Origin: Psammoneis japonica
Lineage: Eukaryota
DNA length: 20,000 nt
NCBI GenBank assembly: GCA_008632985.1
Contig: QPGO01000047.1
Coordinates: forward strand, 243,496-263,495
Direction of reading: 5' to 3'
The translations under genes and the position numbers were made by a program. Below are positions 1 through 20,000 of the stretch, in pieces (the stretch's first letter is position 1; every line of letters starts with the position of its first letter). The notes below the pieces were generated by a model. That model had not been told where the DNA came from. It worked only from the letters and a program-made list of their open reading frames with translations, and ran no database searches.

Positions 1-2
1 AT

Positions 3-1618: not shown

Positions 1619-3271
1619 CTAGTTTCCAATGTATACTCTGATGATATCCGCGATAGAGGCATAGGTACCAATGACGAGAAACACAAGTCCAGCCAAGAAC
1701 AAAAGGTAGCACTTGATCAATTGTGGCCAGTGTAACTTCCAAGAATTCGGTGCAGGAATACAAATCCATTGCGACTCGACCAAATCGTCGTTTCCATAGT
1801 CCAACCGTTTAATCCAGGCGAGCTCCAAAAGGGGTGGGATCAGTAGAGCCGTTGACGAGCCAGCCAGGGCACCTGCTAGCGAGATTAGGGCTTGTACATT
1901 TGGTACAATGACTGCCACCAAGTAGGTCAACATGACCAGCAGTGCTCGCAAGAGTGGGGAGTCTCCCGGCATGGTCATCTTTGGAAGTTGTGTGGCTATT
2001 GAAAAGACGTTCAAAGATGAGGTACGCGAGTTTGCACTTGAGTCAATCTCGTCGCTTTCAGCGTCACCATTCAACTGTCCATAGTGGTGTTCCGATGCTG
2101 GGGTCATCTCTGAGGGCGATACCGGTCTATGCTCTTCAAGTGGCGGTAGCGGCTCAAACGCCGATAGATCATTGTCCTCATCCGTAGTCCCGTCAGGTCG
2201 ATTGAAATAGTGCAGTAGCTTTCTTGATAGCCAAGGCCCGATGAGTTCCAATGCAGGAAAGAGTTGAAGTGGATAGGTCAATAGTACAGACAAGCTCACG
2301 GCCGTATTTGCCACCATGAGCCACCCCGCAATTGAAGGATCGTCTCGGTATGTTTCAACAAGAAAGGCAGTTACACTTCCATTGGTCACCTTTCCAAATA
2401 CCCAAACACAAGTACACGATACAGCGGCCAGAACAAAAGCAACAAACGTCATGGCTGAAACAAACACTTTTTGGAAGTGCTGCGGTTCTTTCATGGCAGA
2501 CTCAACCGGTAAAATTAGGCAAATGCCTTCATAGGAATAGAGAATTGCACATATTGCCAAAGGAGAAGAGGAAAGGTGGATAGTAGGAGTCTCCTCCGGT
2601 CTGTCACTCCATTTCTCTCCAACCACAACACCCAAGCAGCCAAAGCCGAGAAAGAGCAATAGGGTTGCAACAGCAACAACTGGTGCCAATGCTTTGAGAT
2701 TAGGAAGACAGCTCAGCATCATGACTGCCGGAAGAACCATTGTAATGACAAAACCATGGCCGATATTGTTCACCTCGAGGCGTGTCAGAACAGCAAGCAA
2801 GTTTTCTCCGACAAAGGATAAAAACACGGTACAAACAGCCAGTTGCGTGACGCAGATACAAGCTCTAATGTACGCCTGAAATTTTGTTCCATCCGCCCAA
2901 TGTCCGACATCAGGATACGTAATGTTGGTAGATATGGACGTTGCGGTGCCCTCTTCTTCTCCGTCGTTTTGTTCCGGGTTATCGTCCGCTTGGGTTTGTT
3001 CAATGTATCTCTTTATCTTGACGACGGTCCAGCAGTTGTACGACGTCCAGTACGACATGGCAAATATTGCAATGAAGCCTCCCGGTATTCCCAACTGACC
3101 CACAGCCCACGGAAGACTAAGACACCCCGGGCCGAGGTAGCCCTTGAGCAAGTGAAGAAAGGTCTCGGTGCACGTGGTTTGGTGAAGCTCGTCTTCATCG
3201 TTCTCTGCAGAAGTCACGCTGGTTCGTCTGCTTGTTGATAATTCACCCGTGGCGCTATTGTATTCTCTCAT
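1619..3271 (-). CDS. Amino acid/auxin permease (AAAP, Aa_trans; SLC36/PAT-like) transporter
   Basis: Uninterrupted ORF with about 11 hydrophobic segments. It carries the family motifs 'ETFLHLLKGYLGPGCLSLPWA', 'YSYEGICLILPVESAMKEP.HF', 'LTYPLQLFPA' and 'IPN..ALISLAGAL'. The first in-frame ATG is at 3271; the frame is open to ~3358, so an upstream exon or start cannot be excluded. Confidence 0.9.
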   Translation of the reverse strand: MREYNSATGELSTSRRTSVTSAENDEDELHQTTCTETFLHLLKGYLGPGCLSLPWAVGQLGIPGGFIAIFAMSYWTSYNCWTVVKIKRYIEQTQADDNPEQNDGEEEGTATSISTNITYPDVGHWADGTKFQAYIRACICVTQLAVCTVFLSFVGENLLAVLTRLEVNNIGHGFVITMVLPAVMMLSCLPNLKALAPVVAVATLLLFLGFGCLGVVVGEKWSDRPEETPTIHLSSSPLAICAILYSYEGICLILPVESAMKEPQHFQKVFVSAMTFVAFVLAAVSCTCVWVFGKVTNGSVTAFLVETYRDDPSIAGWLMVANTAVSLSVLLTYPLQLFPALELIGPWLSRKLLHYFNRPDGTTDEDNDLSAFEPLPPLEEHRPVSPSEMTPASEHHYGQLNGDAESDEIDSSANSRTSSLNVFSIATQLPKMTMPGDSPLLRALLVMLTYLVAVIVPNVQALISLAGALAGSSTALLIPPLLELAWIKRLDYGNDDLVESQWICIPAPNSWKLHWPQLIKCYLLFLAGLVFLVIGTYASIADIIRVYIGN

Positions 3272-3630
3272 AATATCAATAGAAAGAGGGCGCGCCTCGT
3301 CATTGGGGTCATCAATGGACACAAGGGAAAGGGAGAGAGGAGAGAGAACTAAGGTACATCAGCAACAACACGAGCTTTCCGCAAACCCTGCGGCGGCATC
3401 ATACCGGTACTGTAGCATCTCGCATCGCATCGCAACTGCGCGAGGTCCGGTGGGTTCGGTCCTCGAGCTATACTCTCCATCGTTTTGCTTTGAATGTTTT
3501 TTGACACCTGTGGACAAACGGGACACTGCGTAGCCAGGGTGTACTTCAGTACTCAGTGCTTCGTGGACAAGTGTACCAAGGCGTACCAACGTGTATCAAG
3601 TGCTTCACGAACGATGGGGAGTGAAAAACT

Positions 3631-3691
3631 TGCGCGAAAAATCGCGCACGCTGAGCAGGTAAGTCAGACGGGACTCATTCAGTCACGTCTG
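3631..3691. promoter_or_regulatory. Two short inverted repeats upstream of the transporter and near the left edge of the degenerate block
   Basis: TGCGCGA-AAAA-TCGCGCA (3631-3648) contains an E2F-like TTTCGCGC on the minus strand. CAGACG-G-GACT-CATTC-AGTC-A-CGTCTG spans 3665-3691. Function is not determinable from sequence. Confidence 0.3.
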
Positions 3692-4000
3692 CACGAATTT
3701 CCTCAAAACAACACCCACCATGCACCATGAGAATCGGAGCGGCGTTTTAGACTGTTGCCAATCCTTTCAACAATATCAACACTATCTACTAGTCTTGACT
3801 ATCGTAAAGAATCAACTTATGTTGCTTGTTTGAAGGTTTTCAGCCAATTGTAAGATGAAAACATGGATTTTGTAATTGCACCACGATTGATTCGACACTC
3901 ATCATTTTCGCTCTTCACTGCATGTCGCGATCGAATCGTATTGCGCCTTTGTTTCATTATGTCACTCATTTTCTTTGTAATGGTCATCTTTGTCACTCAT

Positions 4001-5780
4001 GCACAGAGGCTTGTGATGAAGCATCTTGCAGAATGGGAGGTGCGGCACGCGGCACTGTTGTCGTCCAGACAATGTGCAGTGGCTGTCATGATGGTGGACA
4101 CTGCAGAAGGGCACGTGGACATGATGAGTTGGCTCATTGAGAAGGCATTGCTCGCACTGCTGCTGTCAAGCTGGGAAACAACCAATCAACAGCTGATTTT
4201 GTTGGTTGCGCTTCTGTCCTTCTGTGAAAGCTCTTTGACTCCTGCTTCGATGGATCGCTTGTGCGTCCATCTCAACGACTGCGCCGCTGGTCGTGAGCTA
4301 GAACTGCTGACTGTTGCAAGGGACCACGCGTGGAGGGAAGCTGGTCGATGATTTCCTGGCCCCATCTTCGAAAAATGCCAGAGATCTGCACACGAAACTG
4401 GCAGTGTCATTGACTCTTCGCCACTTTCGAATCAGATGGCCCCGGATGGCAGCAGGTCAGCGGAAGAAGGAATGTGTCCTTTTCAGGTGCTGGAGCGGCG
4501 TTCACAAATGCAACTCGCTTGACCTTCATGCAGTTTGAGCCCGTGCTGCTTGAGTTCCTGTCCATTGAACATTGGCCACACTGAGTCGGTCGACAACATT
4601 GATGTCGATGTTGACAGGCTGCTTTGCGTTGCACTGGCTTCGCATCTGCAATCCCCTTGGCCTTGCCTTTTCGATGTAGCATGACTGCTCTACAAGGAAC
4701 CAGGCCTTTTGCTGACTACAAACAAAAGCCTCCAACGCTGCTTCAGTCGTGCTTGAGACCTGCCAGTCTTCATTGTGCAATGTGCTGGTTCGATCTCCCT
4801 GCTGCACTCGGCTTGTCCGACAAATTGACGCAATGAATGGAACTCGAAGCCCGCCCCTTGATTTGGCAAAGGAACTCGTGTGCCTGTGGAAGGAGTCTTT
4901 TAAAAGAACAAGCACTGCTGTCGATGCAAGTGAAGATCTCCCACCTCCGCTTGGCATGGAATCAGTGCGGTTGCAAGCGGTGACAGCAGGGTGCATGCTT
5001 CCCTTTGGCAGAAAATCCCTCCCACCGAAGCTCGCCCCAATGATTCGATCTCTCGTGACAGCCCTGATGAATGAGTCAAGTGGATCTCGACAGGGATGGA
5101 AATTTCTTCATGTGCTGCTCAGATGTTGAAGCTTCCATCTGTTGGAGACCATCTGAGAGTGAGGCACAGAGTGATGGAGAACATCTGCGTCCTTGTGGAA
5201 CATGAGAAATCATCCACTGGCCTTGATGTCCGTGCCAAAGGCTTCATTGTTGCGGCCGCACATGTTCTTGAGTGACAAGTCCATCATCTTCCAAGTCACT
5301 GCACCATGAATGCCCTCCTTCAATTTGGGCGAGAATGAAGCTGTTGAACAGGTGCAGTGCAATCAATCTGCCACAGACGCATTTTGGGGGTTGTGTCGAA
5401 ATCGCCATGACGCAATGCCGATTTGTTCGCTCGCTTGACAGACTTCACAGTCCAATCTCTCGTGCTTGTCACTTTTGGGTGCCCCAGTGTCCGATGCCTT
5501 TCCCTGGCAGCGTTTGAGTCATCATTGTGAACTCAAAAAAGGGTTGAGGATTTCGGTGAAGCATCTCAGAGATGCTCAAAATGACACATGCATGCCAGCG
5601 AGTTGCACCTTGCTGCAATCGATCATCAAATCTGCTGGGATGTGAGTTCGCGAGTTTGTCAAGCTTCTTCTGTCCATTGTGATGTCTCTCATGACTGATT
5701 CATTAGTTGATTGCCCGACAATGGCTGCTTGGAGTTTTGCTGACTTCGGCACGATTGCCCCTTTGGTGCGAAGGGACCAG
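4001..5780 (+). pseudogene. BTAF1: Fragmented BTAF1/Mot1 (TBP-associated Snf2 ATPase) HEAT-region pseudogene
   Basis: 'EWEVRHAALL' (~4030) resembles Mot1 'WEVRHGA'. 'LPPKLAPMIRSLVTALMNE' (~5020) resembles 'LPEKLNPIIKPLMETIKKE'. 'REFVKLLLSIVMSLMTD...AAWSFA' (~5650-5740) resembles 'PYIVLLVVPVLGRMSD...ATQCFA'. It has multiple stops, frameshifts and deletions, and no ATPase domain. Confidence 0.7.
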
Positions 5781-5988
5781 TCATGTGTTGTTGGAGCAAC
5801 GGACGCCAACGATTCCACCACAAAGGTGAGAGGGCAAGAGCCAGCACACACCACCGAGACATTGTTCCTTCACATGAATGCAAACAAAAGGATCCAGCAG
5901 GGGCTGGCTTCGATGATGGAGGAGGAATCCGATGGCAGCATTGTTGTGCATGCCGGCAACCCCACGTTGAGACTTGCACTTTACGACC

Positions 5989-6340
5989 ATGTCGGACGAA
6001 GAGCAAGAACCACACGATGAATTTGGAAATGCACTGGCCCTGATCTAGGTGACGATTCCTCCTCTTCTTCTTCGGATGAACATGATGAGCATCCACAAGC
6101 TCCTGACGATGCGTCCGACGTCTCTGAAGAAGGCTGTGGCGGTGGTGCCATGGTGATCCCCTCGGATCATCAAGAAGAAGCAGAAGCAGAACCTGTGGGT
6201 GTGATTGTCTTGCACAAAGACAAGGAGCATTGTCCTTCTGCCAATGAGGTTATGGCGAAGAAGTGCGGACGGCTGTTTTAGATGAAGATGCCATGGATCT
6301 TGACGTGCCCTTGGTGGAGCCCATTCAGACAAAGAAAAAC
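5989..6340 (+). pseudogene. EFTUD2: 5' fragment of EFTUD2/Snu114 (U5 snRNP 116 kDa GTPase), acidic N-terminal domain only
   Basis: It reads MSDEEQEPHDEFGN/[fs]CTGPDL..acidic..IVLHKDKEHCPSANEV/[fs]YGEEVRTAVLDEDAMDLDVPLVEPIQTKK. The conserved pattern is 'LYDEFGNYIGP.L...VLHEDK.YYP.AEEVYG..V...V.EED.Q.L..PII.P'. There are two frameshifts. Confidence 0.85.
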
Positions 6341-6377
6341 GCCGTTGCTGCTGCTGGTGGTGGTGGAGTTTCGGATG

Positions 6378-6668
6378 TGTCTTGCCATTCGCGAAGCCGT
6401 CTTGGGTTCAAATCATCTGGACATGGCTGCCAGTTGCAACAACATTGCTTTGGTTCTCGAACATCAGGGCAAGCACGAGGAGGCCTTGATGGAGCATCTC
6501 AAGGCACTTGCCATCTTGGGGACAAATCATCCCGACACGGCTTCAAGGCACAACAACATTGGTGTGGTTCTCAAACATCAAGGCAAGTTCGAGGAAGCCT
6601 TGCTCGAGTTTCAAAAGGCACTTGACATTCATCAGGCCGTCTTGGGTCTAAATCATCCACATCAATGA
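6378..6668 (+). pseudogene. Fragment of a kinesin-light-chain/nephrocystin-type TPR repeat gene (about 2 repeats)
   Basis: It reads LAIREAVLGSNHLDMAASCNNIALVLEHQGKHEEALMEHLKALAI and LGTNHPDTASRHNNIGVVLKHQGKFEEALLEFQKAL. The typical pattern is 'HP..A.SYNN.G.V...QGKYEEAL..YQKAL', so Tyr positions are now Cys or His. Confidence 0.85.
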
Positions 6669-7981
6669 TTGCAGCTGCCACAAGGAATCATCAGTGATTG
6701 GTGCGGGACCAAATGATGGCCATGGGTGAAGGAGAAGTGCACAGAACCCCATCTGTGGAGCGCGTCGAAACCGTCTGTTTCAGGCTGGTGCTCCGGTCCA
6801 TGGAGAAGAATTGAGCACTTCTCTTTCACTTCATCATTCAAGAGGGGTCTCTGACAATGCGTCGGCGGAGCGACAAAAAGAGGGAGCTGCTCCAGCTTCA
6901 ATTTGTTTGACCCGCACGATGTGATTGAATCCTTCCTTGCACCCAATGCACCTTGAACTTGATTCCAATGCCGACGGTTGTCTCTTGTCAATGGACTGCG
7001 ACGATGACGGTCGCAGCACTTGTGATGTCGTTGCACACTTTGATGTCGTAATTTTTGTTTTTGCACCACGCCAAGCAGCCCCAGTCCGAGCATGGCGAAT
7101 CCACACATTGATTTACACAAGCAAAGGATCGATGACTGTGAATGTGTGCAGGTGCTGGTTGGTCATGTCAGCTCAGAACGACGGCGCCGAAAGCTGTGGC
7201 AAGAGTGAATTTGATGTGGTTTGATGAGTCATCCTGTTTCTGATGACTGTTTCAGCCTTTCATTGAAGGAGTTCGTCCATGGATTCTTGCGCGACAGATC
7301 TTGTCAAGGTGGCAAAGAATGTTGACAAAAGCGCTGATCTCTTTGTCAGCCTTCACCATGGGAACGTTGCCAGTGCTTTGAACACCTGGATGTCGTGTGA
7401 CCAATTTCGTTCTCTGAGAGAAGTGGCTGCATCTCTGTTTCATCATTTTCTGCTGGTCTCATGAGATGAAATTGTTTCACAACATCTTGGATCAAACGAC
7501 GGGAGTGCTCTTCTTCTCTCCCTCATCTGCACCAACAAGGATGCCGTCGTGCCACAGAAGTGGGCCGACTTGGACCCTTGCTTCATTGTGAACAGCCAAG
7601 AGGTGAAACTTCACAGCTTCACAACATCGGCAAGTTTGCATCTGTTTGCTTTCCCTTGAACTGGAGCGATTTGGTGTCCTTGCAAACTGGTTTGTCGATT
7701 TTAACAATGGCATGTCTCCAGGTGCATGAGGTTGTCTCAATGGTGGCCCACCAGCACAAGGAAGCCGATGAGTGGGAGCTGAAGAAACTTTGGTTGAGAA
7801 AAGGGAAGAATCATGCTTTGACATTTGTTTGACGCCGGCTGCTCCAACCTCTTCGACTCTTCCCGCAGGGCTCCTGTTCTTGCAGAGAAAGGTGAAGAAG
7901 GTGGAGGTCACTCGTGCTGTTAACAACCTCACAGCAGCCGGAAACACTTCTCCAAATGGGAACCAGCTTTCACAACTCAGA

Positions 7982-8442
7982 ATGAATTGAGCGGATCTGT
8001 TGTCTGTGGCATTTGTTGGGACCTTTTCGGGATGCACAAATCCACTTTTACGAAGGGGATCTGCGGAAGCTGAAGCCGACGACGAGCCACGAAATGAAAA
8101 CAAAGCATCTTTCTCCCTCCGACGTTCGCTTGCAGAACTTCAACGAATTCAAGTGATGGCATGGCCCCGTGTGCTGTGCTCAATCAATGGGGTTCTTTGT
8201 TGTGCTTCAAGGTTTTGGCAACATTGGATTTGACGCTTGCCGTGCTGGCATGCAATGCCCTTTCTTTGGTGTTTAGAAGCAGTTTCGGCACCAGCCTTTT
8301 TCTGGGAGAGCGGGTGGACAAACCTTTTCGAGCCTCTGCTGGGGCATCCTTGGTTGTGACGGGTGTTGCCATCTGCATGTCATCAAGAGAGGCAGATCGT
8401 CAATCACCTCGGCCAGATGCAACAAAAGAAGGAGAGCTGTGA
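7982..8442 (+). pseudogene. TMEM234: Near-full-length TMEM234 (UPF0546, DMT-like membrane protein) pseudogene
   Basis: It reads MN*ADLLSVAFVGTFSGCTNPLLRRGS...LNQWGSLLCFKVLATLDLTLAVLACNALSLVF...LGE...AGASLVVTGVAICMSS. TMEM234 reads 'VAALWGGTQPLLKR...[32 protein letters not shown]...LGE...AGMVLTVIGISLC'. There is a premature TGA at codon 3 and a frameshift near 8160. Confidence 0.8.
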
Positions 8443-8899
8443 CGAGAAAGTTGTTTGACTTTCTGCACAAATGGGACTTTTTCCTGTGTGAAGAACACAC
8501 TCACTGTGTGCAGCACCTTGTTTCACAGTGAAGGGTTGAAATGATGCCAGGCACCTCCAGAAAACGCTGGACGATTTCGCTCATGCTATGATGACATGTG
8601 GTTGCAACTTGGCCGAAGAGGGAAGAGTATCATGCAGCTTTCCCGGCTGTTTGTGATTCAGTCTTGACTTGGACCTGCGTGTGCTTCTAAAAACTGGACG
8701 AGTCATCAGGAAACAGCGGTGGTGGCATCGGCTTGGCTCCTGCCTTCTCTTCGGCACGTTGCATGATTGGAGTTTTGAGTTGCGGGTGTCAAACTAGACT
8801 GTGCCCAAGAAGACAGTGCGGGGGAAGTTGCAAAGACTCTCCAGGAAGAAATTGTAGACTTGGTGGAAGAGCGAGCGACTGTGGCAGTGGACTTGTTGA

Positions 8900-9338
8900 A
8901 TCAACCGGCAGCTCTGGACAATGCGAGAATTGCCGAGAAGAGGAGTTTGAGCAAGAGTTGAGAAAGGAAGCACAGGATGCGATGCAAAGGCTCTCATCAA
9001 GTGGAGCCTCCACGTCAACAATGGCGGATTCGGCAGCGCTAGAAGCACACGAGACCAAAATTGTTCGACTGATGGAAGCCAACAAGAAGGCTGAAGAAAA
9101 GCACTCTGGTGAAATGGAAGAAGCTCAGGGGGGAAGTTCAATGGTTGGAGTTGGCAAATGCTGCATTGAAGGTGGATCTGGACCAAGCAGAAGAGACATG
9201 CAAGTGCTTCAGCGCATTTCACAAGAACGAATCGATGCAGAATGGGAAAAGACAGATGATTTGATTCTCACCTTGGAAGATGCCACAGATCAGCTTCGAC
9301 CAGATGAGGATGTCCCCATCAAAAGCGATCGCGAATGA
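8900..9338 (+). pseudogene. Fragment of an unidentified coiled-coil protein gene
   Basis: E/K/Q/A-rich helical stretches (EQELRKEAQDAMQRL...LEAHETKIVRLMEANKKAEEKH; ERIDAEWEKTDDLILTLEDATDQL) lie inside the degenerate block. No family was recognised. Confidence 0.35.
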
Positions 9339-11319
9339 CTCCTGTCCATGCTAGAAACAGCAGTGCTTGCACATTGACAAGTCAAGCTGTTGCTCATGTT
9401 GATCGAGACCACATTGCAGAATCAACTTGAGAGTGTGAAGAATGACAATCTCAGCATGAGCGGGGCTGGACCAATGGATGCCAGGGTCATGGATCATTTG
9501 AGTCGACACAGGCCGAAGGCACTGGACACAGCTCCAGTCAAGACTGCACTGCATCTGCAGCAGCAACATGGGTCACCATCCTCTTTCAAAACAAACCTTG
9601 CCCACCACTTGCAGACACACATTGGAAGACGTCCAGGCAGCCTTTTCCACCAAATCCAAGGCCAAATGCAACACGAAATGATTCATCACCAGGAGTGCCC
9701 TGGGTGGCGGGATGGCAATGATTGGGAACAAGAAGTGCACTGTGCTGCCCCGCCTCATTGGGACACTGTTGGACACAAAGACCCAATCTGGAGGAAGCAG
9801 CCATTGCAGAAACATCCATCATGGAACCCGATTGTCCCGACAATTGGCTTGCAAGCCAAGGTGCCGTCAGGTGGTTTGGACCGGTCAAGGAGGGTGACAG
9901 GCCGCGCTCTTTGGATGAGAGCGGAGCATGCATTGGCTGAATTCAGAGCTTTGAGGATTGGGCTTGTGTTGATCGCTGCTTTGGAAATGGGCGGAACAAC
10001 AGGTGCTTTCAAGTCGTCAAAGAGCCCGCAAGCGAGAACAGTGCAACACTCTCTGGCTTGAAACCTTGACGACACTGCCAAATGGAAGTTTTCTGAGCTG
10101 TTGTCCTCAGCTTTGTCATTGCTGCAAAGCCTCTGTTTTCCCTCAATCTAGCTGGGTGTGACTGCAGCAAGCTCCAATCTCAATGTGTTGTCATTGGCTG
10201 TGCGTGTGTGCAGGAGCATTGATTTCAGCGACTCAGCGAAGCTTCGTTGAACATTCGGTTTGACCGAAACTTGATGAGGTTGTCTTCTTGGAAACCACAT
10301 GGTGCAAACGCAACTAGCATCATGTTGCACTCTTTTCACTTTCGCACACTGGCTTGCACAATCTGATGGCACAAGATGGGAGTGCACCAAAACATTCATC
10401 CCACCCTGCACAGTGTTCCGACTGCCGTGTTGGCCAATGTCAACAGCCACGCAAGCAGCAAAAGTGGAAAGTGGAAAGCAATCTGCTGTTGTTCTTGTCA
10501 TGACGGATGTCATTCGACGTCATGACTGGTTGAATTGTTCCAAACACAAAATGCGCATGATGCATGGACAGGCCAGGAATTGTGTGGATGATGCATCCAG
10601 CAAATGGTTGTGGTTCTTGGCAACAACAAGATTGTGCAAGGACCCATTTGATTGAAAAGATGGAAGCACATGAATGACAAAGTTCTGTGTTCATTCTAGA
10701 TGCCACGGAATGTTTTCCTTCATTGCCATGGAGAGGAGCCGCCATCCTTCCTGGCACACAAACAAAGCCATTCCGTGACACCAATGCTTGCCTTGACATT
10801 TCCATTCTTCCACAATTCATTCTCCACATCCGAAACAAGCAAGGGTTTGGTTCATTGACTGCGGCTGATCTTGAGCAAGTGCAGAGTCGTTGTTTCATTG
10901 AAGCACCAATCATGCCTGGCACACATTTTGTTGCGGAAAACATGAGTCGCGGGGCGGGACCCACTGTTGCTTGAACCTTGGCACTTCAACAAAGACTGAC
11001 TGCCACATCGTTTCAAGAGTCGGGTGGTCGAACCGGGGCACAAAGGGTGCATTGCTACGTTGACAAGGAAGATGAAAAGCAATGTCAGCAAATGCATCTC
11101 GAATGAAAAGAAAAACAGACACGAAATCGACTTACGTTGGGGGTGCGTTCGAATGCAATGCAACACAATGAGTGCACCCCACGGCAGTTTGAAATGCATG
11201 ACAAACTCATGCAATGTTGGCAAGTCTTTGATGTGCACAAAAGCTGTTTTGTGCCGTGAAATGGAGTTGAGAGATGCCCCCATGCATGCTCGATTTCCAG
11301 AGTGCAAAACAAGCAGTCA

Positions 11320-12891
11320 ATGAGTCTGCGGCGACTCATGATCCTTGCAGATCTGCGCACGACACGCCCAGCATTAGACAAAATAAAGACACTGCCCGTC
11401 ACTCCACTGAGCCTGGGCGAGCGTCTCAAAGAGACAGGATGGGCTGCTTTCTCCTCATTCTGCGCAACAACAGCAACAACATCCACAGGATCAATGTCTT
11501 CATCTGGCAACTCCGCGTTCTCCAAATCTTGACCCTCTCCTTCAAGATCAATGCCATGTTGCAACAGCCCATCATCCACAGGTTTTCCAAATCATCTGTT
11601 GGTTCTTCCACATCTGGCAGATCATTCAAGGCATTGTCAGGCGCCTCGTCTGCTGCCAGAACGACTTCCTTGGCAACAGAATTGTCATCAACAGCAACAG
11701 CAGGATCAGCCAATGGCTCCTCTTCACCCTCACCTTCTAGCACAATGTCATGATGCAACAACCTGTCATCCAAAGGATCACCCGAATTGTCCAACGGCAC
11801 TTCCACATCCAAGGCATCATCTGGCTCCTCACGTGCTTCAACGGCTGCATCCACCTGAACAACTTCCTCCTCGGCGACAGGATCAGCAGCAGCAGCAGCA
11901 ACAACAACAGGATCAGCATTGGGTCCCTCAACCACTGCATCTGCCGGAGCAACAATGGCCTCGACCGGTTCAATTGCCGCTGGAGTCTGCACCCATCCAT
12001 GCCAATGATCATGCCTTGGATGCGTTTGACACTCACGAATGCATTGGTCTGGTTTTCGCTCGTGCTCAAGCAGCGCATCAGCCTGTTGCTCATCATTCAG
12101 GATGGGAATGACACGAGTGTAACGTGGTTGTCGAAGAACGCCTTTGGCCGCCCTGCCAGTGGGGATTGGAGGAAGGTCACTGACAAAGACATTCTTGATC
12201 AGTTCTCCGTCCGGCAGCCACTCTAAATGCCGCTGACGACACTGCCGAGCCAGCTTGTCTTGCTCCTCGTCGACTCCACTCAAGGCAAAGTCCAACTTCC
12301 GATCAGATGGCGCTGGAATCTTGGTTGCATGCTTTGGATCTCGAAGAACTTTTGGAGCAGCCATGCCGGTTGGGACGGCACGATCGCGAACACCGTGCAG
12401 GTTCTGCTTCAGTCCAGCGGGTCTCCATCTGACACTCCCACGGCAAAAGCATTTGCGCTTCAAGAACAGCAGCCAAGTGACCACAAACTGAAAAGCATCA
12501 CAGACAAGCAGAAGAACGAATGCACGGTCCATGCAACCAATGCAACCGCGAGAGCAGCCGAAACAGCATCGCATGCTCGATCCCAAAGAAGTGTGGTGAC
12601 GTCGTCAATTTCCACAATTCGGCAGCACAAGAAACAGACAGTGCTGCCAATCAACTTCAGCGAGCAGCACACGAACACCACAGCAAATGCAGCGAGGAGA
12701 GCTGTGCAGACCGCAAGGACAAAGGCCACCAGTTCTTCAATCATGCAGCGAATCTCGTCCACGGCAATGCACGAGAAAATCCACATTTCCCAAAGCAAAC
12801 CGCTGGCGATTCGGCCGTGGTTCTGCTTGCCGTGAAATGCACGTAGCAGGAGATTGACAAAGAGTGTGATCAGTGCAATGCATGCAATCAT
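11320..12891 (-). pseudogene. Frameshifted gene for a hypothetical protein: hydrophobic N-terminus, acidic Ala/Val/Asp/Glu-rich repeat region, basic RRS.RL tail
   Basis: Three consecutive minus-strand ORFs (12460-12891, 11426-12586, 11085-11579) join into one architecture. It has an internal repeat DDRLLHHDIVLEGEG / DDGLLQHGIDLEGEG and the tail LRRSPRLSGVTGSVFILSNAGRVVRRSARI. It is Cys/His-rich and nearly Tyr-free. The 3' end is approximate. Confidence 0.5.
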
Positions 12892-13973
12892 GATGGGGGT
12901 AATGGCATCAACAAAGACAGATTGGTAAGAGTGTGTTTCAATGCAAGCAAAACTTGAAATTGTGTGGTGAGCGAGACGTCGCTCGTTGTTGTGGCTGCGT
13001 CACATTCGTGAATCGTGAATGTGTAGAAACTGTACCGGTGAAGCCCGTAGAAAAGCCGACAGTCAGTCACGCTTTTCAAGTTTTGACGTGATGTTGCGGC
13101 ACGTTTGCATTCGGTTACTCATAGGCTCTAAGGTAGAAACAATCAGAGGCCGGGATTGATGTTGGATGTATCCATGATGAGTATTATCTATTATAGAGCT
13201 TTTCTCTGCAATGAAATTCAGTGTTGCTACGACAGAGCCCATTCTTCTTAGGCCTACTACAAGTACGGTACGCTTCAGACCCAGAAGTAGCATGCAGATT
13301 CTGGTGCTTGCTCCCGTGACACGCCACAAATCAAACTAGTTGAACGATCCTCCCGGTGATACCATGGTAACTGACAACGAATGCATTCTTGATTGAAGAC
13401 GTCGACAGGGTAAGACTGTCCTCGTCGTTGAGGAGTAGCCTCACTGAGTCTGAGCTCGACGGAAACGGTCCCACAATCCAACAAAGTAAGAGCCGAACTA
13501 AGAGTATCGTCGGATTTCTTTTTGCTTTGTTTTGGCAACACGAGTGCCAATACTTTATTCAGAAGTAAGTCACCGAGAAGTACAATTGATCTTTTCAAAC
13601 CATGCCATTCAAATAACTCCATTTTGCACACCATGCGCGACGCTCTGAAGGTCCTAATTCCGGTGTTATTTGAAGGGAGCATTGCCATGCATCATGTGAA
13701 AAAAGTTTCGTAAAAGGGACGACAGAGGATGATTCCAAGATAAGGCACATAGCACCAGATCCTCTTTTCTCCGAAAAGGCATTCTCTCAAAGCCATAGGC
13801 TCATTCCCAAGCGCCATCCAAAAATAATGATAAACAAATGTTGCTTCGCAGAGTGATCTCATGATGGTAAGTATGAACTCGTAGGCAGCCCATTCTTTTG
13901 CTTGATGAAACTCGTTCGTGAGGATCCTTAGCGTCCAGAGCGAATCCACGTGGGCGGCACATAGCCAGGAGAG

Positions 13974-15461
13974 TCAGCGACTGTTGGTGTTAAAAGCGAG
14001 AAACGTCACAAGCAAGTAGCAGAGATGAAGATTTGTGAAAGCCTCCGGCATCCAATTCCTGCTTGCTTCTGGTCCATACCTGTCCCTGGCAGCCAAACTA
14101 TTGAATTGATTCTTGCTTCCGCCATGACTCAGTAGGATCTTGATACAACCGTCCCGTCCAAGCTGACACGCCAGCATTAGCGGTGTAGTCGAAATCTCGT
14201 CATCATTTTGCTCTCGACTTGTCTTTGTATATCTGTTCTTCCTCTCGAAATCGTCATTCAGCCACAACATTCTAAGCAAGTGCGGCCTATCCAAGCAAAT
14301 GGCAAGTCCAACAGGCGAAAGCTTTTTCATTGCGCAAAAGCCATGGACCTCACTTAAGCCCAACTCCTTCAACTCAACCGGCTTGTTCAGCCCAATGTTG
14401 ACACCATGATCATTTCTGTAGACGTCCAAGAGTTGCGAAACCGCAACGGAATCATCGTTTTTGACGGCAAGGTGGAGTGGATAAGGATGTCGGAGATAGT
14501 CATTGACCATGACGACGTCGGCTTTCGCCGTATCTGAAATGCCTCGACAAGCTATATGTGATTCATCAGTTTCAGTGTCTATTGATGCGTCAGACGAAGC
14601 GGTCGAGCCACTGCTACTGTCATCGCTGCTTTCCGAAGGAGAGTCCTCTTCGTGCAGCCGTTGTTCTCGTTGTTGCTGTTTCTTTTCTCTGATAATTTGC
14701 CTCCATCGGTTGCGCAGTTTTGCCATGCCCCAAGGCGCCGATTGGGTATAGCATGATGATACCGATAACTGCTGAATATCTCCCACGGAGGAACAAGTTT
14801 CGTTTTTCGTTTCTAGTGGCTCGGCTACTAACGGAGGTCTGTCTTGGGCTGCAGCTCTTGCTGAGAGAGTCGTAAGTACTGCATTCCCACGCTCTTTCTG
14901 CTCTATCTGCTCTAATCGTTCGTTTTCTTGCTGCTCTTTCTCTTTTCCATGAGCCTGCCACGCCACATCCGACCACTTCCCCTCGTCGCTCGTTTCTCTT
15001 GTCCTATTATGGCTTGCTTTTGTGAAGGATTCACGCACGTCCAACGGAGGAAACAACGACCGAAATTCTGCAAAGGACAAGGCTGTATCCTTTTTATCTT
15101 TAACGTGGCAACCATCAACGGATTGGGTTGTTGATGTACTTTGCTTGTCAATTTTGTCGCGTCGTTTTCGGTTATTTCTGTGATGTTGTTTTCTATTGTT
15201 TTTCTTATTCTCTGTTGCGTTTGTTCCCGCACGGCCGGTATCGCTGTCGTTTGTATTATTTTTTGACGTATCCTTTTCTTTGTCTGCTTTTGTCTTTTCC
15301 TTTCTATTCCTGCGTTTCCTTTGTTGTTTGTTTCTTTTTCTGGTTACTTGTAACGTTGAGCTGCCGCCGCTGTCAAACGATTCGCGTGTGCCTACAGACG
15401 AATGTGCCAAAGGAGGTATGTTTGACGGCAGGAAAACGGGAGCATCAGCTCTCAACGACAT
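13974..15461 (-). CDS. PAM2-motif, basic/low-complexity and ankyrin-repeat protein (possibly 3'-truncated)
   Basis: ATG at 15461 gives MSLRADAPVFLP (PAM2-like), followed by a K/R/N-rich region. Ankyrin-like repeats include YPLHLAVKNDDSVAVSQLL, SPVGLAICLDRPHLLRML and TTPLMLACQLGRDGCIKILLSHG. A probable intron (GTATGG at 14079 to CAG at 13981) is followed by a stop two codons later. TpA content is normal. Confidence 0.7.
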   Translation of the reverse strand: MSLRADAPVFLPSNIPPLAHSSVGTRESFDSGGSSTLQVTRKRNKQQRKRRNRKEKTKADKEKDTSKNNTNDSDTGRAGTNATENKKNNRKQHHRNNRKRRDKIDKQSTSTTQSVDGCHVKDKKDTALSFAEFRSLFPPLDVRESFTKASHNRTRETSDEGKWSDVAWQAHGKEKEQQENERLEQIEQKERGNAVLTTLSARAAAQDRPPLVAEPLETKNETCSSVGDIQQLSVSSCYTQSAPWGMAKLRNRWRQIIREKKQQQREQRLHEEDSPSESSDDSSSGSTASSDASIDTETDESHIACRGISDTAKADVVMVNDYLRHPYPLHLAVKNDDSVAVSQLLDVYRNDHGVNIGLNKPVELKELGLSEVHGFCAMKKLSPVGLAICLDRPHLLRMLWLNDDFERKNRYTKTSREQNDDEISTTPLMLACQLGRDGCIKILLSHGGSKNQFNSLAARDRYGPEASRNWMPEAFTNLHLCYLLVTFLAFNTNSR

Positions 15462-15682
15462 GCTACTACGAAGAAGCAAGAAGGATGTCACTGTGTTGCA
15501 TGGATGGATGTTATGTATGAGGAGGCGTTGCAACGTTGCAAAGTTAATGACTCTGATTTCCGGCACCACGCGCTATGCTCTTGTTACTTTGTTTCTTTGT
15601 GTCTCTCACCAGTCACGAGTCAACAACCGAGTCTGATTCACGGATGACGCTTCCGGTCATGGATCTCTTCTTCCGGAAGAAA

Positions 15683-15893
15683 TGTCCGTTGAGTCTTCTA
15701 GCGATAGTAATCGGAGTGACACACGACCGTTAGGTCATAATGTCATCTCCAATCCCTCGTGAGATCTTCTCATAATTCGTATCTTTAGCGTATCTTATTG
15801 TCCCAAAACTACTTCTTATCATCCTCTGTTGTATTGTACAACCTCAAGAGAGTCCTGAACTCTCCATCCTACACAGTGTATTGTTGTATCCCA
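15683..15893 (+). repeat. Putative 5' LTR (start uncertain)
   Basis: It ends ...TATCCCA three bases before the PBS. The candidate TG start at 15683 follows a 14-bp palindrome. It cannot be confirmed without the 3' LTR. Confidence 0.45.
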
Positions 15894-15896
15894 AGT

Positions 15897-15908
15897 GGTT
15901 ATGAGCCC
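15897..15908 (+). promoter_or_regulatory. Primer binding site, copia half-tRNA-iMet type
   Basis: GGTTATGAGCCC differs by one base from the GGTTATGGGCCC PBS of Drosophila copia-type elements, and sits directly after the CA-ending segment. Confidence 0.65.
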
Positions 15909-15978
15909 AATCCACACACCGGCATCAACTCGCAACGGAGTTGCTGCCACTCGTTCGTCTCGTTACAGACAACATCCC

Positions 15979-16065
15979 ATCCAACGGCGATCTTCTATGT
16001 CGCAATCCAACGGCGATCATCTGTGTCGCAATCCCTGCCTGCTAATCGATCCTCTATGTCGAATC
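15979..16065 (+). repeat. 26-nt tandem repeat in the retrotransposon 5' leader (2 copies plus a partial third)
   Basis: ATCCAACGGCGATCTTCTATGTCGCA (15979-16004), ATCCAACGGCGATCATCTGTGTCGCA (16005-16030) and a partial CGATCCTCTATGTCG (~16047-16061). Confidence 0.85.
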
Positions 16066-16075
16066 ATCCACAACC

Positions 16076-19000
16076 ATGTCCATGGATCCTGACACCGTCA
16101 AGATGTTTGCTGAAGCCTTCGCCAAGATGCAAACCTCGACCAACCCTCCTGCGATCCCCACGCCGCTTCGCGGCGGCACCCACCACTCTCATGGAGTGCA
16201 TCTGGGTGGTTCAGCTCTGAACAACAAGTGTGAGCAGACCGACACCCGCACCTGCCGTTTTGCCTCGCAACGTCGCCATCCGAAAGCTGTCGACTCTGTC
16301 GAGCGATCTCTCCGAGATCAACTCGCTTCGGCAACCACATCCAAGTTCAACGGCCAGATTGAGTTGTCCAACGGTTCCAGCACTGAACTGGACAAAGACC
16401 ACTTCGTCAAGACCATCCAGGACTTGATCGAGTTGCATGGACAAGAAACTTTCTACCATCTCAAGAAAGTCGACGGCAAGGTCGTGCACCTTTTTGATCA
16501 TCTTCACGCCTTCACTGTCAAAGACCTTGAGAAGGAATGTGAGACCCGTGTGGCGGCTGCAGGTGACGAAGGCTACGATCAGCATGAAATCGATGACATC
16601 GGCTCATCACAACTCATCGTCAAGTCGCGCATCACCGAAACCTTCCGTGAAAAGATTGAAACCAAGTTTGGTCACTTGAAGAACTGCAAGGATCTTCCGG
16701 GGTCTGTCTCATTTATGATGGCTCTGGATGCCTGCAACGCCAGTGCTCTGGTTGACGTCAAGGCCGCCAAGGAAAAGTTGAATGACTTAACTCTGGACAC
16801 CTGCCCTGGTGAGGACTGCGCCGAGCTTGCAACCGAAGCTCTGCGCCTGCTCAAGATCATGCAGACGGACTGTGCGCCACCAGTTGAAACTGGGTCCACT
16901 GTTTTATCTAAGGTGTCAAAGACATCCTCCGAGTTTTTCAATCGTCAAGTTTTTGCCAAGCTCGACTCCGTCAAGCGCTTGGAGCGCAAATGTCGCTTGC
17001 GTGACCCGGCAGAAGTCCCCAAGGATGCCGACCACGCGGATCTTGGACCTGTTGGCCTCATTGGCTGGATCACCAAGACCCATGGCGAGCTCATTGGCGA
17101 TGAAGATTGGCCTGCCTCAGCAGCCAAGCTCCCGGAATCCAACCTCACCAAGGACAACTCGGAAAAGCAATGCTGCGGCTGTGGCAAGGTTGGGCACACC
17201 AAACGCACGTGTCCCACCTGCAAGGAGCAATGCAAGAAGGACAAAAAGGGCACGGCGGACAAGTCCAAGGATGACCCTCCGGATGTCCGGAAGACTGACC
17301 CTTCCAAGAAACCACCCAAGCCGGCCTGGCGTTTCGTTCACAAAGGTGCCACTGTCACCGACGAGAAAGGCACGACCTGGCACTGGTGCGACAAGTGTGT
17401 GAACAAGGAAACGGGCAAGAAGGGCATGCATCAAGGCCACTCCTCCGCTCAACACACCGGGAAACCGTCTGTCAAAACCGAAACCACCGCTGCGGCAAAT
17501 TTATCTGCTGTGTCGGACCCCTCTTCGGGCATTCCTTTTGGTCCTCCCGAGCAGACGACGTCTCCGCCTACAGACAAACCCTCTGACCCTAACGAGCTGG
17601 TTTGTTGCGGCATGTGGTGTGCACCTGTGGACGACTCTTTGAGTTCGACTCCAGTGACTACGACCGTCACGTTCACTCCTGCTCCATCGGCCGAGAGGGA
17701 GACTGCCGTGGCCAAACCCGCTCCCATCTTGGTTGAAACGGTTGACCCCGAAGACGCTGACGATTGCTCCGAGCACTCCGACGCTCACTCCTCTTTTGAC
17801 TCCCTGCCGTCAGCTGTCGAGCCATTTCCGGCCTATGCCATGCATGAGATTCAAAATCCGGACGTGTTTTATGACACGATCGCAACTCACGTGGAAGGTC
17901 TGTCCGACGACGTGTTAGACGATCTCGTTTCCGGGGCAAGCATCCCACCTTTCGAAGACAGCTACGAGCACTTACCTCCAAGCACCCAGCATCGCGGTTT
18001 CGAATTTTACGATCCCGAACCCCAAGATGTTGATTGTGGCGTCGAGGAGGCAACGCCGAGCTCTCGTCTTGAGCTCTTCTGGAACTTCTTGAAGCTCCGA
18101 GTTTTCTGGCTGTTTGCCATGTTCTGGGAAACGGTGCTGCACATTTGCTGTGCGCCGATTCCTGTCTTACCTCGTCGCATGCGCGGTAAGGCATTCATCC
18201 CAACCATTCACGGTTTCCCCTCTACCTGGATGGTGCTGACTGGAGCCATCATGGTCTGGGCGTCTGTTTTCAATGGTCAGCTTCCCACGCATCCATTCTC
18301 CAATGTCCCCTCTCGCTTCTCCAAAGCCAGCTCTCAGGTCTGCTCGATCATTGAAGAACTGGACTATGAGACAGTGTTAGATCCGGGCAGTTTGGTGGAA
18401 TGCAACAAGATCAAGGCGCGACAAGTGCTTGCCGAATTTGTGGAGCGCGATCCGGACCATTGTCTGAGCAAGAAATTCACGCAGCTCTGGGAGAACGACG
18501 TGTGCTCTTCCCCAGGCCGCTGTGTCCCTCCAGCTCTAGAAGACCCCGAGTCCCACTTCGACACCTGTGATTCAGAGGAAGCCCTCGGCCCGCTCCCGAC
18601 CGAGCCGAGCCACTACTTTGACACGGTTGAGGAGCTCTCTCCGGACTATTTTCGTTTCGACGAGCTGTCCACCAAGTTTGGTTTCGTGGACACCACTCCA
18701 TGGCAAGACCCTGTGAAGCTTCTCCAGGCAGCTGCTGACGGAACCGAAGCCTGTCCCACTCATACCTCTGTGCAGGTGTTGACAGGCCAACGTTCTTTAG
18801 CACAACTCGCCGCCGACCCGCAAGCTTTGCTGAGCCTGGCACATGAGCGCCACACCGTCACATGCGATGCTGGCGCATCCTTGGCCATCACTTGCGATGA
18901 AAACGACTTTGTCGGACCTCTGACGATCCCTGATGGCCCATTGAAGCTTGGGGGTCTAGCAAATGGCTTAACCATCGCCGGCATCGGACCCGTCTCCTGG

Positions 19001-19999
19001 GTTTTCCATGACGAGGACGGCTCTGAGCTCGTCGTCAAGACGATGGCGCACCATGTGCCTCAGGCCGGACAACGTCTTCTATCCCCACAACGCCTCTACA
19101 GCAAGGAACATGGCGTGACAGGAAAATGTGAGGGAGACGAGGACTCATTTCGAGTGCATGTTGATGGCGCCGGTTCGCTCAAGGTCGCGCACGCGTCAAA
19201 TCACTTGCCGGTTGCGTCTGTGACCAACGGGGTGGCACCCGCTCCTCAAGTCAATCTGTCTGTGTTGCACGAGGACAACCAGAACCTCACCACCGGTCAG
19301 AAGCTCCTTCAAGAATGGCACTTCAGGTTTGGTCACCTGAACATGCCACGCATCCAAGGCCTGCTTCGGGCCGAACCTTTTCTCCGACCCAAATTCAAGC
19401 ATGCTTCGCGTTGCGACATTCCGCGGTGCGAGGCATGCGAATGTGCCAAAGGACATCGCCGAACCCTCAAGTCTGCCAAACATGCGGCTGCTCCAGAGCG
19501 TGAGGGTGCTCTTCGAGCCGAGCATCTACGCCCAGGCCAAGCCGTCAGCGTGGATCACTTCGAATCCCGTCTCCTCGGCCGAACCTGCGACTCCTGCGGG
19601 AAGGCCTCGTCCCAGCAATACAAAGGAGGCTGCATTTTTGTGGATCATGCCTCCGGTTACCTGCATGTTGAACACCAACTTGGTTTCTCTGCTGTGGAAA
19701 CGGTGCGAGCGAAGCAAGCGTTTGAAAAGCACGCGATGGACCACGGCGTCATCATCCAAGAATTTCTTGCCGATTCTGGCGCTTTCAAGGCCAATGCTTT
19801 TGTGCAACACATGCGACAGCACGAACAACGTCTACGTTTTTGCGGAACCAACGCCCACCATCAGAACGGCGTCGCAGAACGCGGCATTCGCTCTGTCTCC
19901 AACATGGCGAGAGCGATGCTTCTCCACGCATCCATCCGTTGGAAGGGGGGCACAGACAGCTCTTTATGGCCCATGGCCGTGTCTCATGCCGCGCACATT
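16076..19999 (+). CDS. Copia Gag-Pol polyprotein (Gag, CCHC knuckle, aspartic protease, integrase), 3'-partial; frame open but probably inactivated by missense changes
   Basis: ATG at 16076, after an in-frame TAA at 16043, and no stop to the window end, which is why the ORF track omits it. The zinc knuckle CCGCGKVGHTKRTC is at 17171-17212. The protease reads VTCDAGASLAIT (~18857) and RLLSPQ. The HHCC region reads WHFRFGH...CEAC. The integrase core reads VSVDH, ADSGAF and HHQNGVAER, followed by LWPMAV. Confidence 0.9.
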   Translation, partial: MSMDPDTVKMFAEAFAKMQTSTNPPAIPTPLRGGTHHSHGVHLGGSALNNKCEQTDTRTCRFASQRRHPKAVDSVERSLRDQLASATTSKFNGQIELSNGSSTELDKDHFVKTIQDLIELHGQETFYHLKKVDGKVVHLFDHLHAFTVKDLEKECETRVAAAGDEGYDQHEIDDIGSSQLIVKSRITETFREKIETKFGHLKNCKDLPGSVSFMMALDACNASALVDVKAAKEKLNDLTLDTCPGEDCAELATEALRLLKIMQTDCAPPVETGSTVLSKVSKTSSEFFNRQVFAKLDSVKRLERKCRLRDPAEVPKDADHADLGPVGLIGWITKTHGELIGDEDWPASAAKLPESNLTKDNSEKQCCGCGKVGHTKRTCPTCKEQCKKDKKGTADKSKDDPPDVRKTDPSKKPPKPAWRFVHKGATVTDEKGTTWHWCDKCVNKETGKKGMHQGHSSAQHTGKPSVKTETTAAANLSAVSDPSSGIPFGPPEQTTSPPTDKPSDPNELVCCGMWCAPVDDSLSSTPVTTTVTFTPAPSAERETAVAKPAPILVETVDPEDADDCSEHSDAHSSFDSLPSAVEPFPAYAMHEIQNPDVFYDTIATHVEGLSDDVLDDLVSGASIPPFEDSYEHLPPSTQHRGFEFYDPEPQDVDCGVEEATPSSRLELFWNFLKLRVFWLFAMFWETVLHICCAPIPVLPRRMRGKAFIPTIHGFPSTWMVLTGAIMVWASVFNGQLPTHPFSNVPSRFSKASSQVCSIIEELDYETVLDPGSLVECNKIKARQVLAEFVERDPDHCLSKKFTQLWENDVCSSPGRCVPPALEDPESHFDTCDSEEALGPLPTEPSHYFDTVEELSPDYFRFDELSTKFGFVDTTPWQDPVKLLQAAADGTEACPTHTSVQVLTGQRSLAQLAADPQALLSLAHERHTVTCDAGASLAITCDENDFVGPLTIPDGPLKLGGLANGLTIAGIGPVSWVFHDEDGSELVVKTMAHHVPQAGQRLLSPQRLYSKEHGVTGKCEGDEDSFRVHVDGAGSLKVAHASNHLPVASVTNGVAPAPQVNLSVLHEDNQNLTTGQKLLQEWHFRFGHLNMPRIQGLLRAEPFLRPKFKHASRCDIPRCEACECAKGHRRTLKSAKHAAAPEREGALRAEHLRPGQAVSVDHFESRLLGRTCDSCGKASSQQYKGGCIFVDHASGYLHVEHQLGFSAVETVRAKQAFEKHAMDHGVIIQEFLADSGAFKANAFVQHMRQHEQRLRFCGTNAHHQNGVAERGIRSVSNMARAMLLHASIRWKGGTDSSLWPMAVSHAAHI

Positions 20000-20000
20000 T

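Follow-up and report, generated by a model that had tools for sequence, protein, structure and literature searches.

TpA-specific mutation in a Ty1/copia element and a neighbouring 9-kb block in the nuclear DNA of the diatom Psammoneis japonica, with the adjoining 5' LTR spared

The window analysed here is a 20,000-nucleotide stretch of nuclear DNA from the diatom Psammoneis japonica (contig QPGO01000047.1), and all coordinates given below are positions within it. Its right-hand end carries an element that, judged by its sequence, is the first 60% or so (16076-19999) of a diatom Ty1/copia long terminal repeat (LTR) retrotransposon of the CoDi-like type. The gag-protease-integrase frame of this element, P0001, is open along its whole length and strongly depleted in the dinucleotide TpA. 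A 9-kb block farther left carries the same signature, and host genes with normal TpA stand to the left of the block and between the block and the element (Table 1). Homologues of 2100-2250 aa that carry gag_pre-integrase and RVT_2 domains match P0001 over its whole length, starting from their own first residues, and those that bear a name come from the diatom Fragilaria crotonensis. The nearest database relative is 60% identical to P0001 across the protease-integrase part, and identity over the entire length is 38-47%. The protein database yielded no near-identical copy among proteins of 719-2289 aa (best 60% identity, in the protease-integrase part) and no near-identical gag among proteins shorter than 719 aa (best 42%). 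A Pfam search of P0001 returned a weak gag_pre-integrase match and nothing else. The frame nevertheless shows a gag knuckle, a protease motif and an integrase in that order; the window ends inside the integrase, after which PF07727 (RVT_2) follows in the full-length homologues. The copy resembles the diatom Ty1/copia elements named CoDi in these respects, as far as the accessible text of their description goes (Maumus et al. 2009, PMC2806351). We liken it to CoDi at the level of the lineage rather than of any named CoDi group, and its nearest named relatives are from diatoms.

Table 1. Features of the window, in window positions
Feature	Position	Strand	Remarks
CAF1 ribonuclease gene fragment	3-683		Host gene
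Amino-acid transporter gene, intronless	1619-3358	-	Host gene; Pfam Aa_trans E = 3e-54; TpA normal
Block almost free of TpA	4000-12950	.	37 TpA (observed/expected 0.07), TG 1.60, CA 1.56, CpG 0.62
EFTUD2 N-terminal domain fragment (in block)	6036-6349	+	Two frames; PF16004 E = 1.6e-5 (profile 12-88) and 8.2e-6 (87-119)
Kinesin-light-chain-type tetratricopeptide repeat (TPR) fragment (in block)	6369-6662	+	Pfam TPR_12, E = 1.7e-29
TMEM234-like, nearly complete (in block)	8012-8379	+	Two frames; PF10639 E = 0.0031 (profile 3-29) and 4.2e-9 (48-113)
Weak Sedlin_N-like fragment (in block)	9597-9686	-	PF04628 E = 1.1e-4 (22.7 bits; cut-off 23.1)
Ankyrin-repeat gene	13974-15572	-	Host gene; Pfam Ank, Ank_2; start ~150 bases from LTR; TpA normal
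5' LTR	15725-15895	+	End fixed by primer-binding site; start uncertain, possibly as far left as ~15555
Primer-binding site TGGTTATGAGCCC	15896-15908	+	12-mer from 15896 common to relatives
Leader	15909-16075	+	Contains a 26-base tandem duplication
Open gag-protease-integrase frame (P0001)	16076-19999	+	1308 codons, cut by window end; TpA-depleted
Gag zinc knuckle C366, C369, H374, C379	17171-17212	+	Retained; near-invariant alignment columns
Protease active-site motif	18866-18877	+	D-A-G-A here, D-T/S-G-A in the family
Integrase zinc finger H1082, H1087, C1118, C1121 and catalytic D1160, D1190, E1268	19319-19879	+	All retained; invariant columns

The original prediction had described an open frame of about 1,300 codons with some 35 TpA in 3.9 kb and plentiful CpG, and the counts agree closely: there are exactly 35 TpA in 3925 bases (observed/expected 0.18) and 276 CpG (0.91), while TG and CA stand at 1.36 and 1.21. 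In two stretches of host genes elsewhere in the window, the TpA ratio is 0.66 (1-3700) and 0.53 (13300-15550). Among 80 related elements from metagenomes, the ratio ranges from 0.46 to 0.89 with a median of 0.66, and the lowest single 1-kb window in any of them reaches 0.27. Given that none of the 80 relatives is depleted, the loss of TpA is not a habit of the family. The other steps composed of A and T are ordinary in the frame (AT 0.86, AA 1.23, TT 1.18), and the loss is therefore restricted to TpA and does not reflect a general drift from AT to GC. Scaling the 35 remaining TpA from 0.18 to the relatives' median suggests that about 93 of about 128 ancestral TpA are gone. The survivors are distributed along the frame at 8, 9, 13 and 7 per kb, with no 5'-to-3' gradient. 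The effect on the protein is pronounced: P0001 contains 12 Tyr (0.92%), 42 Cys (3.2%) and 63 His (4.8%) codons, compared to means of 3.0% Tyr (range 1.7-3.9), 1.8% Cys and 3.4% His in 60 homologues. Its share of Tyr is the lowest among 134 family proteins, the next lowest being 1.71%. The codons ATA and GTA do not occur in the frame at all, and the silent TTA (10) and CTA (5) codons persist.

The direction of the change was read from an alignment of the 44 homologues, among 120, that span P0001 from before residue 150 to beyond residue 1290. Columns with Tyr in at least 60% of these 44 were taken as conserved, which gave 23 columns. P0001 has Tyr in only 3 of them, with His in 11, Cys in 5, Phe in 3 and Ser in 1. 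Of 950 such positions in the pooled homologues, 730 are Tyr and 59 are His or Cys, so that P0001 differs from them both in the Tyr kept (Fisher p = 3e-10) and in the 16 of 23 columns that have become His or Cys (p = 5e-14). Single homologues put through the same test keep 10-19 of 18-23 Tyr and show 0-1 Cys and 0-4 His. A majority rule over 19 homologues gave a similar picture, with 26 Tyr columns that read His 10, Cys 8, Phe 4, Tyr 3 and Ser 1 in P0001. Over 411 conserved columns of all kinds, P0001 has 89 mismatches, 65 of which can be explained by one base change. These 65 include 16 TA>CA and 7.3 TA>TG steps (ties shared), a total of 23.3, compared to 1 in the reverse direction; the balance of TA>CA to TA>TG in this count is biased, given that only non-synonymous changes enter it and TA>TG is silent in Leu and Val codons. 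The claim that TA had been turned into TG or CA, and that TpA was the specific target, is thus borne out by the Tyr columns, by the ratio of forward to reverse steps and by the ordinary AT, AA and TT values. Once 28 substitutions of the TpA-loss type are set aside, P0001 has 61 mismatches, within the range of 37-93 found in homologues. This lack of any excess of other mismatches, together with a frame free of stops and frameshifts, points to a process that was fast and specific.

The same direction can be seen at individual motifs. The consensus of the 19 homologues reads YPGENV, YALPV, CYYVP, CEICEYAKAHRR, RTxDSYGK, HIREH and WPMAVxYATY where P0001 has CPGEDC, CAPPV, AHHVP, CEACECAKGHRR, RTCDSCGK, HMRQH and WPMAVSHAAH. 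The motifs that the original prediction had expected of an undamaged element (YPGE, YALP, YYVP, CEYAK, DSYGK, HIRE and YATY) all match this consensus, and AHHVP does lie at 19046-19060 when the frame is translated. One expected motif proved wrong, namely CYGC at the zinc knuckle, where the family consensus is C-F-x-C. Within the protease motif, D931, G933 and A934 are invariant, and the family consensus FDTGAS corresponds to CDAGAS in P0001, where Ala stands in place of the consensus Thr (share 0.79) at residue 932. Codon D931 before it reads gat, and the change would be gaT|Acn to gaT|Gcn, a single TA>TG step over the codon border at a site that is not listed among the single-step differences above. 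The D-T/S-G of the family is missing from the frame, but given that one TA>TG step accounts for its absence, P0001 is better regarded as an inactivated copia member than as a non-member. The codons of the intact zinc-finger and integrase catalytic residues contain no TA; their roles as an HHCC finger and a DDE triad are assigned here by our reading of the motifs.

A direct reading of the genetic code upholds the further claim that TA>TG and TA>CA changes cannot create a stop codon. TAY becomes TGY or CAY, NTA becomes NTG or NCA, and a TA across a codon border yields NNC or GNN, none of which is a stop; TAA and TAG are erased by the same changes. The P0001 frame has no in-frame stop, and the other five frames contain 10-46 TGA and 3-15 TAA plus TAG. 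In the 9-kb block, each of the six frames contains 57-87 TGA and only 8-12 TAA plus TAG, and this scarcity of TAA and TAG gives the block many long frames without meaning. Given that stops are erased and none are made, an open frame in such DNA is no sign of function. It had been proposed that the element was ruined by missense behind a frame that looks intact, and this is what we observed: 1308 codons remain open, 20 of the 23 conserved Tyr are replaced and the protease reads DAG. Dead elements and pseudogenes mutated in this way keep long frames and gain spurious ones on both strands, and annotation that relies on open frames counts them as intact.

Two public sequencing runs of the same sample, X1 and X2, were compared with the window by way of their contigs; the depths given here are sums over contigs and are not a copy number. 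The start of the 5' LTR near 15725 rests on the loose end of a contig, on an insertion at 15718-15724 and on a rise in summed depth. Its other end is set by the word TGGTTATGAGCC at 15896, which is common to three metagenome relatives, L009, L011 and L012 (as a 10-mer in L009), and which in L009 and L012 follows the repeated LTR segment without a gap. Given that this word abuts the LTR in relatives, the 5' LTR of our element ends at 15895 and a leader of 167 bases precedes the ATG; the 3' LTR falls beyond the end of the window. The two copies of the 26-base tandem duplication in the leader (15980-16005 and 16006-16031) differ by one TA/TG and one T/A, an anecdotal observation.

The 5' LTR has been spared by the TpA hypermutation. 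It holds 14 TpA (observed/expected 0.95), of which 8 are preceded by a purine, and the last two of these, at 15879 and 15887, lie less than 20 bases from the primer-binding site. Between 15896 and 16075 there are 5 TpA, all preceded by a pyrimidine; from 15896 to the end of the window, 3 of 40 are purine-preceded, and 16056-16453 has no TpA whatsoever. This places the edge of the tract somewhere from 15888 to about 16080. The leader neither locates this edge more exactly nor reveals its own state of mutation, because the TpA of relatives' leaders are also mostly preceded by a pyrimidine.

The 9-kb block is the more heavily depleted of the two tracts. Its borders fall between the TpA at 3978 and 4299 and between those at 12926 and 13024. 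The sequence of the block reads as a mosaic of host-like gene pieces with no recognisable transposon (Table 1). The TPR fragment has His for Tyr at three places when set against KLC1 chains (gkHeea/gkYee, eHlkal/yYqral and diHqavlg/eiYqtklg), and the longer TMEM234-like piece contains 0 Tyr and 5 Cys. A Pfam search of 67 stop-to-stop frames of the block found no transposon or viral domain, including no reverse transcriptase or integrase. Neither a repeat search nor blastn at low stringency revealed an LTR pair or any similarity among the three flanks with normal TpA. A frame of 392 aa gave no match in a Protein Atlas search. The presence of the same signature in host-like fragments of the block, including the Tyr>His changes, points to a chromosomal process in this genome. 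The block's CpG ratio of 0.62 is below that of host DNA (about 1.0) and that of the copia frame (0.91), and several contig differences set CG against TG or CA; the CpG decay of the block fits cytosine methylation of an older tract. Both tracts have sharp borders and end 150-630 bases short of the adjacent host genes.

Several features of the block's surroundings and of the host genes were recorded alongside. One contig in each of X1 and X2 joins 5661 to 7169 and so skips 1507 bases that include the EFTUD2 and TPR fragments, a segment that may be an insertion missing from another haplotype or strain. Just outside the block borders, the segments 3723-4000 and 13024-13340 have normal TpA density but raised summed depths (985 and 1425); these repeated sequences resemble neither each other nor the copia LTR. 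The best database relatives of the amino-acid transporter are at most 57% identical to it, and those with an organism name all come from diatoms, which assigns the window to a diatom. Just downstream of this gene, two direct repeats of 67 bases (1315-1466) are 87% identical and 85 bases apart. Inside the CAF1 gene, X2 skips 96 bases with GT..AG ends (585-682), which X1 does not; X2 is recorded as 'DNA?', and the skip suggests an intron and an RNA-derived X2.

The context in which TpA survives proved informative in both tracts. Only 3 of the 35 TpA left in the frame are preceded by a purine, compared to 46% (1814 of 3965) in the coding strands of 19 relatives (chi-square over four classes p = 1.6e-4). 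Tyr codons behave likewise: of those preceded by a purine, 9 were changed (6 to His, 3 to Cys) and 1 was kept, whereas 9 were changed and 11 kept after a pyrimidine (Fisher p = 0.024). We estimate that about 95% of the purine-preceded and about half of the pyrimidine-preceded TpA have been lost from the frame. The base that follows TpA had no visible effect there. In the block, the bases on both sides of TpA matter: purine-TA-pyrimidine makes up 1 of 37 survivors (86 of 246 for host DNA), and pyrimidine-TA-purine makes up 19 of 37 (36 of 246 for host DNA; p = 1.8e-7). With both strands of the block pooled, relative survival of TA-N is 0.19 for T, 0.64 for C, 1.72 for A and 1.99 for G. CTAG accounts for 9 of the 37 survivors in the block and for 6 of 173 in host DNA (1-3900), and seems to be the most resistant context. 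When adenine editing is assumed, these patterns are read as a preferred site T-A-pyrimidine, edited on either strand in the block but in the copia frame chiefly on the antisense one. The tRNA deaminase TadA naturally meets its target in a T-A-C loop context. Three further indications were dropped. The excess of TG versus CA by codon phase, measured against 17 relatives, is confounded by GC content; raw TG/CA skews along the block disappear when expressed as observed/expected values; and a strand asymmetry of 7:3 versus 2:5 between parts of the block is too weak for use.

The public runs provided a further view of the locus. Over the whole window, X1 differs by 446 G>A, 444 C>T, 386 A>G, 383 T>C and 671 transversions, totals that are indecisive because CpG decay adds to both sides. 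Summed contig depth is 95-319 over 4003-10672 and 113-265 over host genes, is higher over 10673-13340, and reaches 1780-3990 over copia, roughly tenfold that of the host genes. X2 has no cover on 16009-20000, and among the public runs listed no RNA run contained words of the copia stretch. Of 2408 difference rows, the 40 listed, all with X2 depth, include 21 in 10790-12635 and none in the copia frame. Among those 21, the window has TG or CA against TA in other contigs in 6 rows and against CG in 4. Between 4000 and 10700, the rows listed comprise 3 CG/TG differences and 1 transversion, with no difference of the TA type.

We consider it probable that the loss of TpA was driven by the host and acted regionally, in place in the chromosome, and that it is of the same kind as the process reported for Bigelowiella natans (Mettrop et al., bioRxiv 10.64898/2026.01.13.699255). 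Such an attack would be episodic and would hit TpA adenines in either strand of DNA that is foreign or silenced. The enzyme would probably be an adenine deaminase of the TadA/ADAT type that favours T-A-pyrimidine, a preference that fits enzymes of this type. The tract would end before it reached the active promoter of the host gene next to the LTR, and the resulting margin next to the ankyrin gene would explain why the LTR was spared. Action in place is suggested by the fact that the block is not a recognisable retroelement, that loss on this scale needs repeated exposure and that the rest of copia is undamaged. The intact frame and CpG of 0.91 in copia, compared to the broken frames and CpG of 0.62 in the block, fit, without proving, the idea of the original prediction that the copia copy is younger and that the process could serve as a clock. 

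Several observations weigh against action in place. Among the survivors in the frame, pyrimidine-TA-pyrimidine outnumbers purine-TA-purine 23:1, compared to 1427:622 (2.3:1) in relatives (binomial p = 0.002), and a one-sided context of this kind is not predicted by a strand-blind process on double-stranded DNA. The LTR adjoins the mutated region and yet keeps all 8 of its purine-preceded TpA, a class almost entirely lost in the frame, which a process that mutates whole repeats does not predict. No deaminase gene lies within the window. Only 52% of the 31-letter words of the copia stretch are present in X1, the single public run that matches it. Finally, the copia frame was compared with database homologues and metagenome relatives, and its changes are only putatively private to this copy.

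The spared LTR and the one-sided context are explained better if the element was edited during its own retrotransposition, whereby an adenine deaminase would act on single-stranded minus-strand cDNA (less often on RNA or the plus strand) before integration and the copy would have arrived already ruined. This main rival resembles what APOBEC3 does to retroviruses, with A>I in place of C>U. During retroviral reverse transcription, the minus strand of the LTR is single-stranded only briefly, and an LTR spared beside a mutated internal region would be in keeping with this. The frame's context corresponds to T-A-pyrimidine on the antisense strand, and the prevalence of His over Cys at purine-preceded Tyr codons leans the same way, as does the surplus of non-synonymous TA>CA over TA>TG steps in the biased count given above. 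We still regard this explanation as rather unlikely. It leaves aside the block, where the signature is stronger and on both strands, at single-level depth and in host-like fragments without remains of reverse transcriptase or integrase. It would also require about 70% of TpA to be lost in a single round, since a dead element cannot cycle, and the survivors show none of the gradient along the frame that would accompany it. In the majority-rule columns, moreover, Tyr>Cys (8) nearly equals Tyr>His (10). 

The possibility that the changes do not exist in the DNA had also to be weighed. If a base modification present only within the tracts led a long-read caller to report A as G, whichever the strand, real TA would appear as TG or CA. 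Sharp borders would suit an epigenetic mark, and the 0.52 share of words found in X1 is near the 0.48 calculated for about 93 wrong places in 3925 bases. X1 differs from the window in host genes too, however, so that divergence between strains or haplotypes explains the missing words. Among the rows listed for 4000-10700 no TG or CA stands against TA, though about 3% of positions should differ if the calls were wrong. The CpG decay, broken frames and graded context rule of the block resemble history rather than miscalls, and the same signature in B. natans came from short reads according to the accessible text of the preprint (bioRxiv 10.64898/2026.01.13.699255). An artefact of assembly or base calling is thus very improbable. 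We give still less credence to selected avoidance, in which the lineage shuns TA on account of a nuclease, TA-targeting insertions or RNA decay and the element is still functional. The open frame and the preserved zinc-finger and integrase catalytic residues would agree with a working element, but the replaced Tyr and the protease DAG would not. The silent TTA and CTA codons persist while Tyr codons go, whereas selection for a functional protein would leave the opposite; the LTR and leader retain TA; and 0 of 80 relatives show the depletion. Equally hard to credit is an origin in ADAR-like hyper-editing of one RNA strand, fixed by reverse transcription, or in GC-biased gene conversion. To our knowledge, ADARs are metazoan enzymes. 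On the coding strand, T>C occurs no less often than A>G (Tyr>His 10-11, Tyr>Cys 5-8), and the single-strand alternative that the original prediction had raised fails because both strands were changed. A>G next to U is indeed a known neighbour preference of ADAR, as quoted in the accessible text of the B. natans preprint (bioRxiv 10.64898/2026.01.13.699255). The net change from AT to GC would suit biased conversion, but the AT, AA and TT steps are not depleted.

A wider scheme can be proposed, although we regard it as speculative and unlikely to hold in full. Diatoms may restrict LTR retrotransposons by means of an adenine deaminase that edits T-A-pyrimidine on replication intermediates, an A>I counterpart of APOBEC3, and the same enzyme may act on silenced chromosomal DNA. 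A deaminase working on replication intermediates would explain both the spared LTR and a context rule read on the antisense strand. The enzyme family may also underlie the B. natans case and represent an old defence across the SAR (stramenopile-alveolate-rhizarian) group.

Among known systems, the repeat-induced point mutation (RIP) of fungi such as Neurospora is similar in that a host process riddles repeated or foreign DNA with one type of transition in a dinucleotide context and leaves skewed tracts behind. RIP acts as C>T mainly at CpA, which creates TpA and many stops and lowers GC, whereas the process seen in the diatom copia is its chemical mirror image, A:T>G:C at TpA, which removes stops and raises GC. 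The marks of RIP, C>T at CpA with an excess of TpA, are absent here, given that TpA is depleted and CpA is not. Dependence on repeats is also a property of RIP, while most of the 9-kb block lies at single-level depth. If the host is indeed behind the loss of TpA, diatoms, which form a major phytoplankton group amenable to experiment, would have a mutational genome defence that mirrors fungal RIP chemically. Its context-graded saturation could serve as a relative age marker for insertions beside CpG decay, and the collateral damage to host-like gene fragments is a testable detail that the window provides. APOBEC3 is a second parallel, since it kills retroviruses and LTR retrotransposons by hypermutation in a short context, and the sparing of the LTR and a strand bias would fit cDNA editing. 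The base that APOBEC3 deaminates, however, is cytosine (plus-strand G>A), and its action is on one strand and makes stops (TGG>TAG/TGA), whereas in the diatom copia adenine is the likely target, both strands are changed and no stops arise.

The closest parallel is B. natans. According to the accessible text of Mettrop et al. (bioRxiv 10.64898/2026.01.13.699255), two integrated viral regions of this genome mutate about 1000 times faster than the rest, in some lines only, by mutations that are nearly all A>G or T>C and all at TpA. De novo TpA>TpG/CpA changes in the integrated viral DNA arise at about 6e-7 per site per generation. TpA-poor coding sequences are enriched in reverse-transcriptase and DDE domains, and the cause suggested by the authors is an adenine deaminase of the ADAT2 type with DNA as its substrate. 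The two cases share changes restricted to TpA, yielding TpG or CpA according to strand, and regional tracts in which TpA is lost and TpG and CpA are gained. They differ in that B. natans is a chlorarachniophyte (Rhizaria) rather than a diatom, and in that the targets measured there, insertions of giant viruses and virophages, are much less depleted (TpA rho 0.45 for the giant-virus region), the diatom copia being much nearer saturation. Mutations were also measured in real time in B. natans, whereas the diatom case is read from sequence alone. Full-text searches of the literature, together with term searches in papers on diatom transposons or methylation (PMC9998398, 10.1101/2025.10.24.684338 and PMC2806351), found no report of this signature in diatoms. 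In a term search, the main text of the preprint showed no mention of diatoms, flanking-base preference, strand bias, LTR sparing or the consequence for stop codons. Collectively, the phenomenon has already been described once, in a 2026 preprint on viral insertions in another SAR lineage (bioRxiv 10.64898/2026.01.13.699255), and to that description our analysis adds a preference for T-A-pyrimidine, the sparing of an LTR, a possible strand bias and the presence of host-like gene fragments within a mutated tract.

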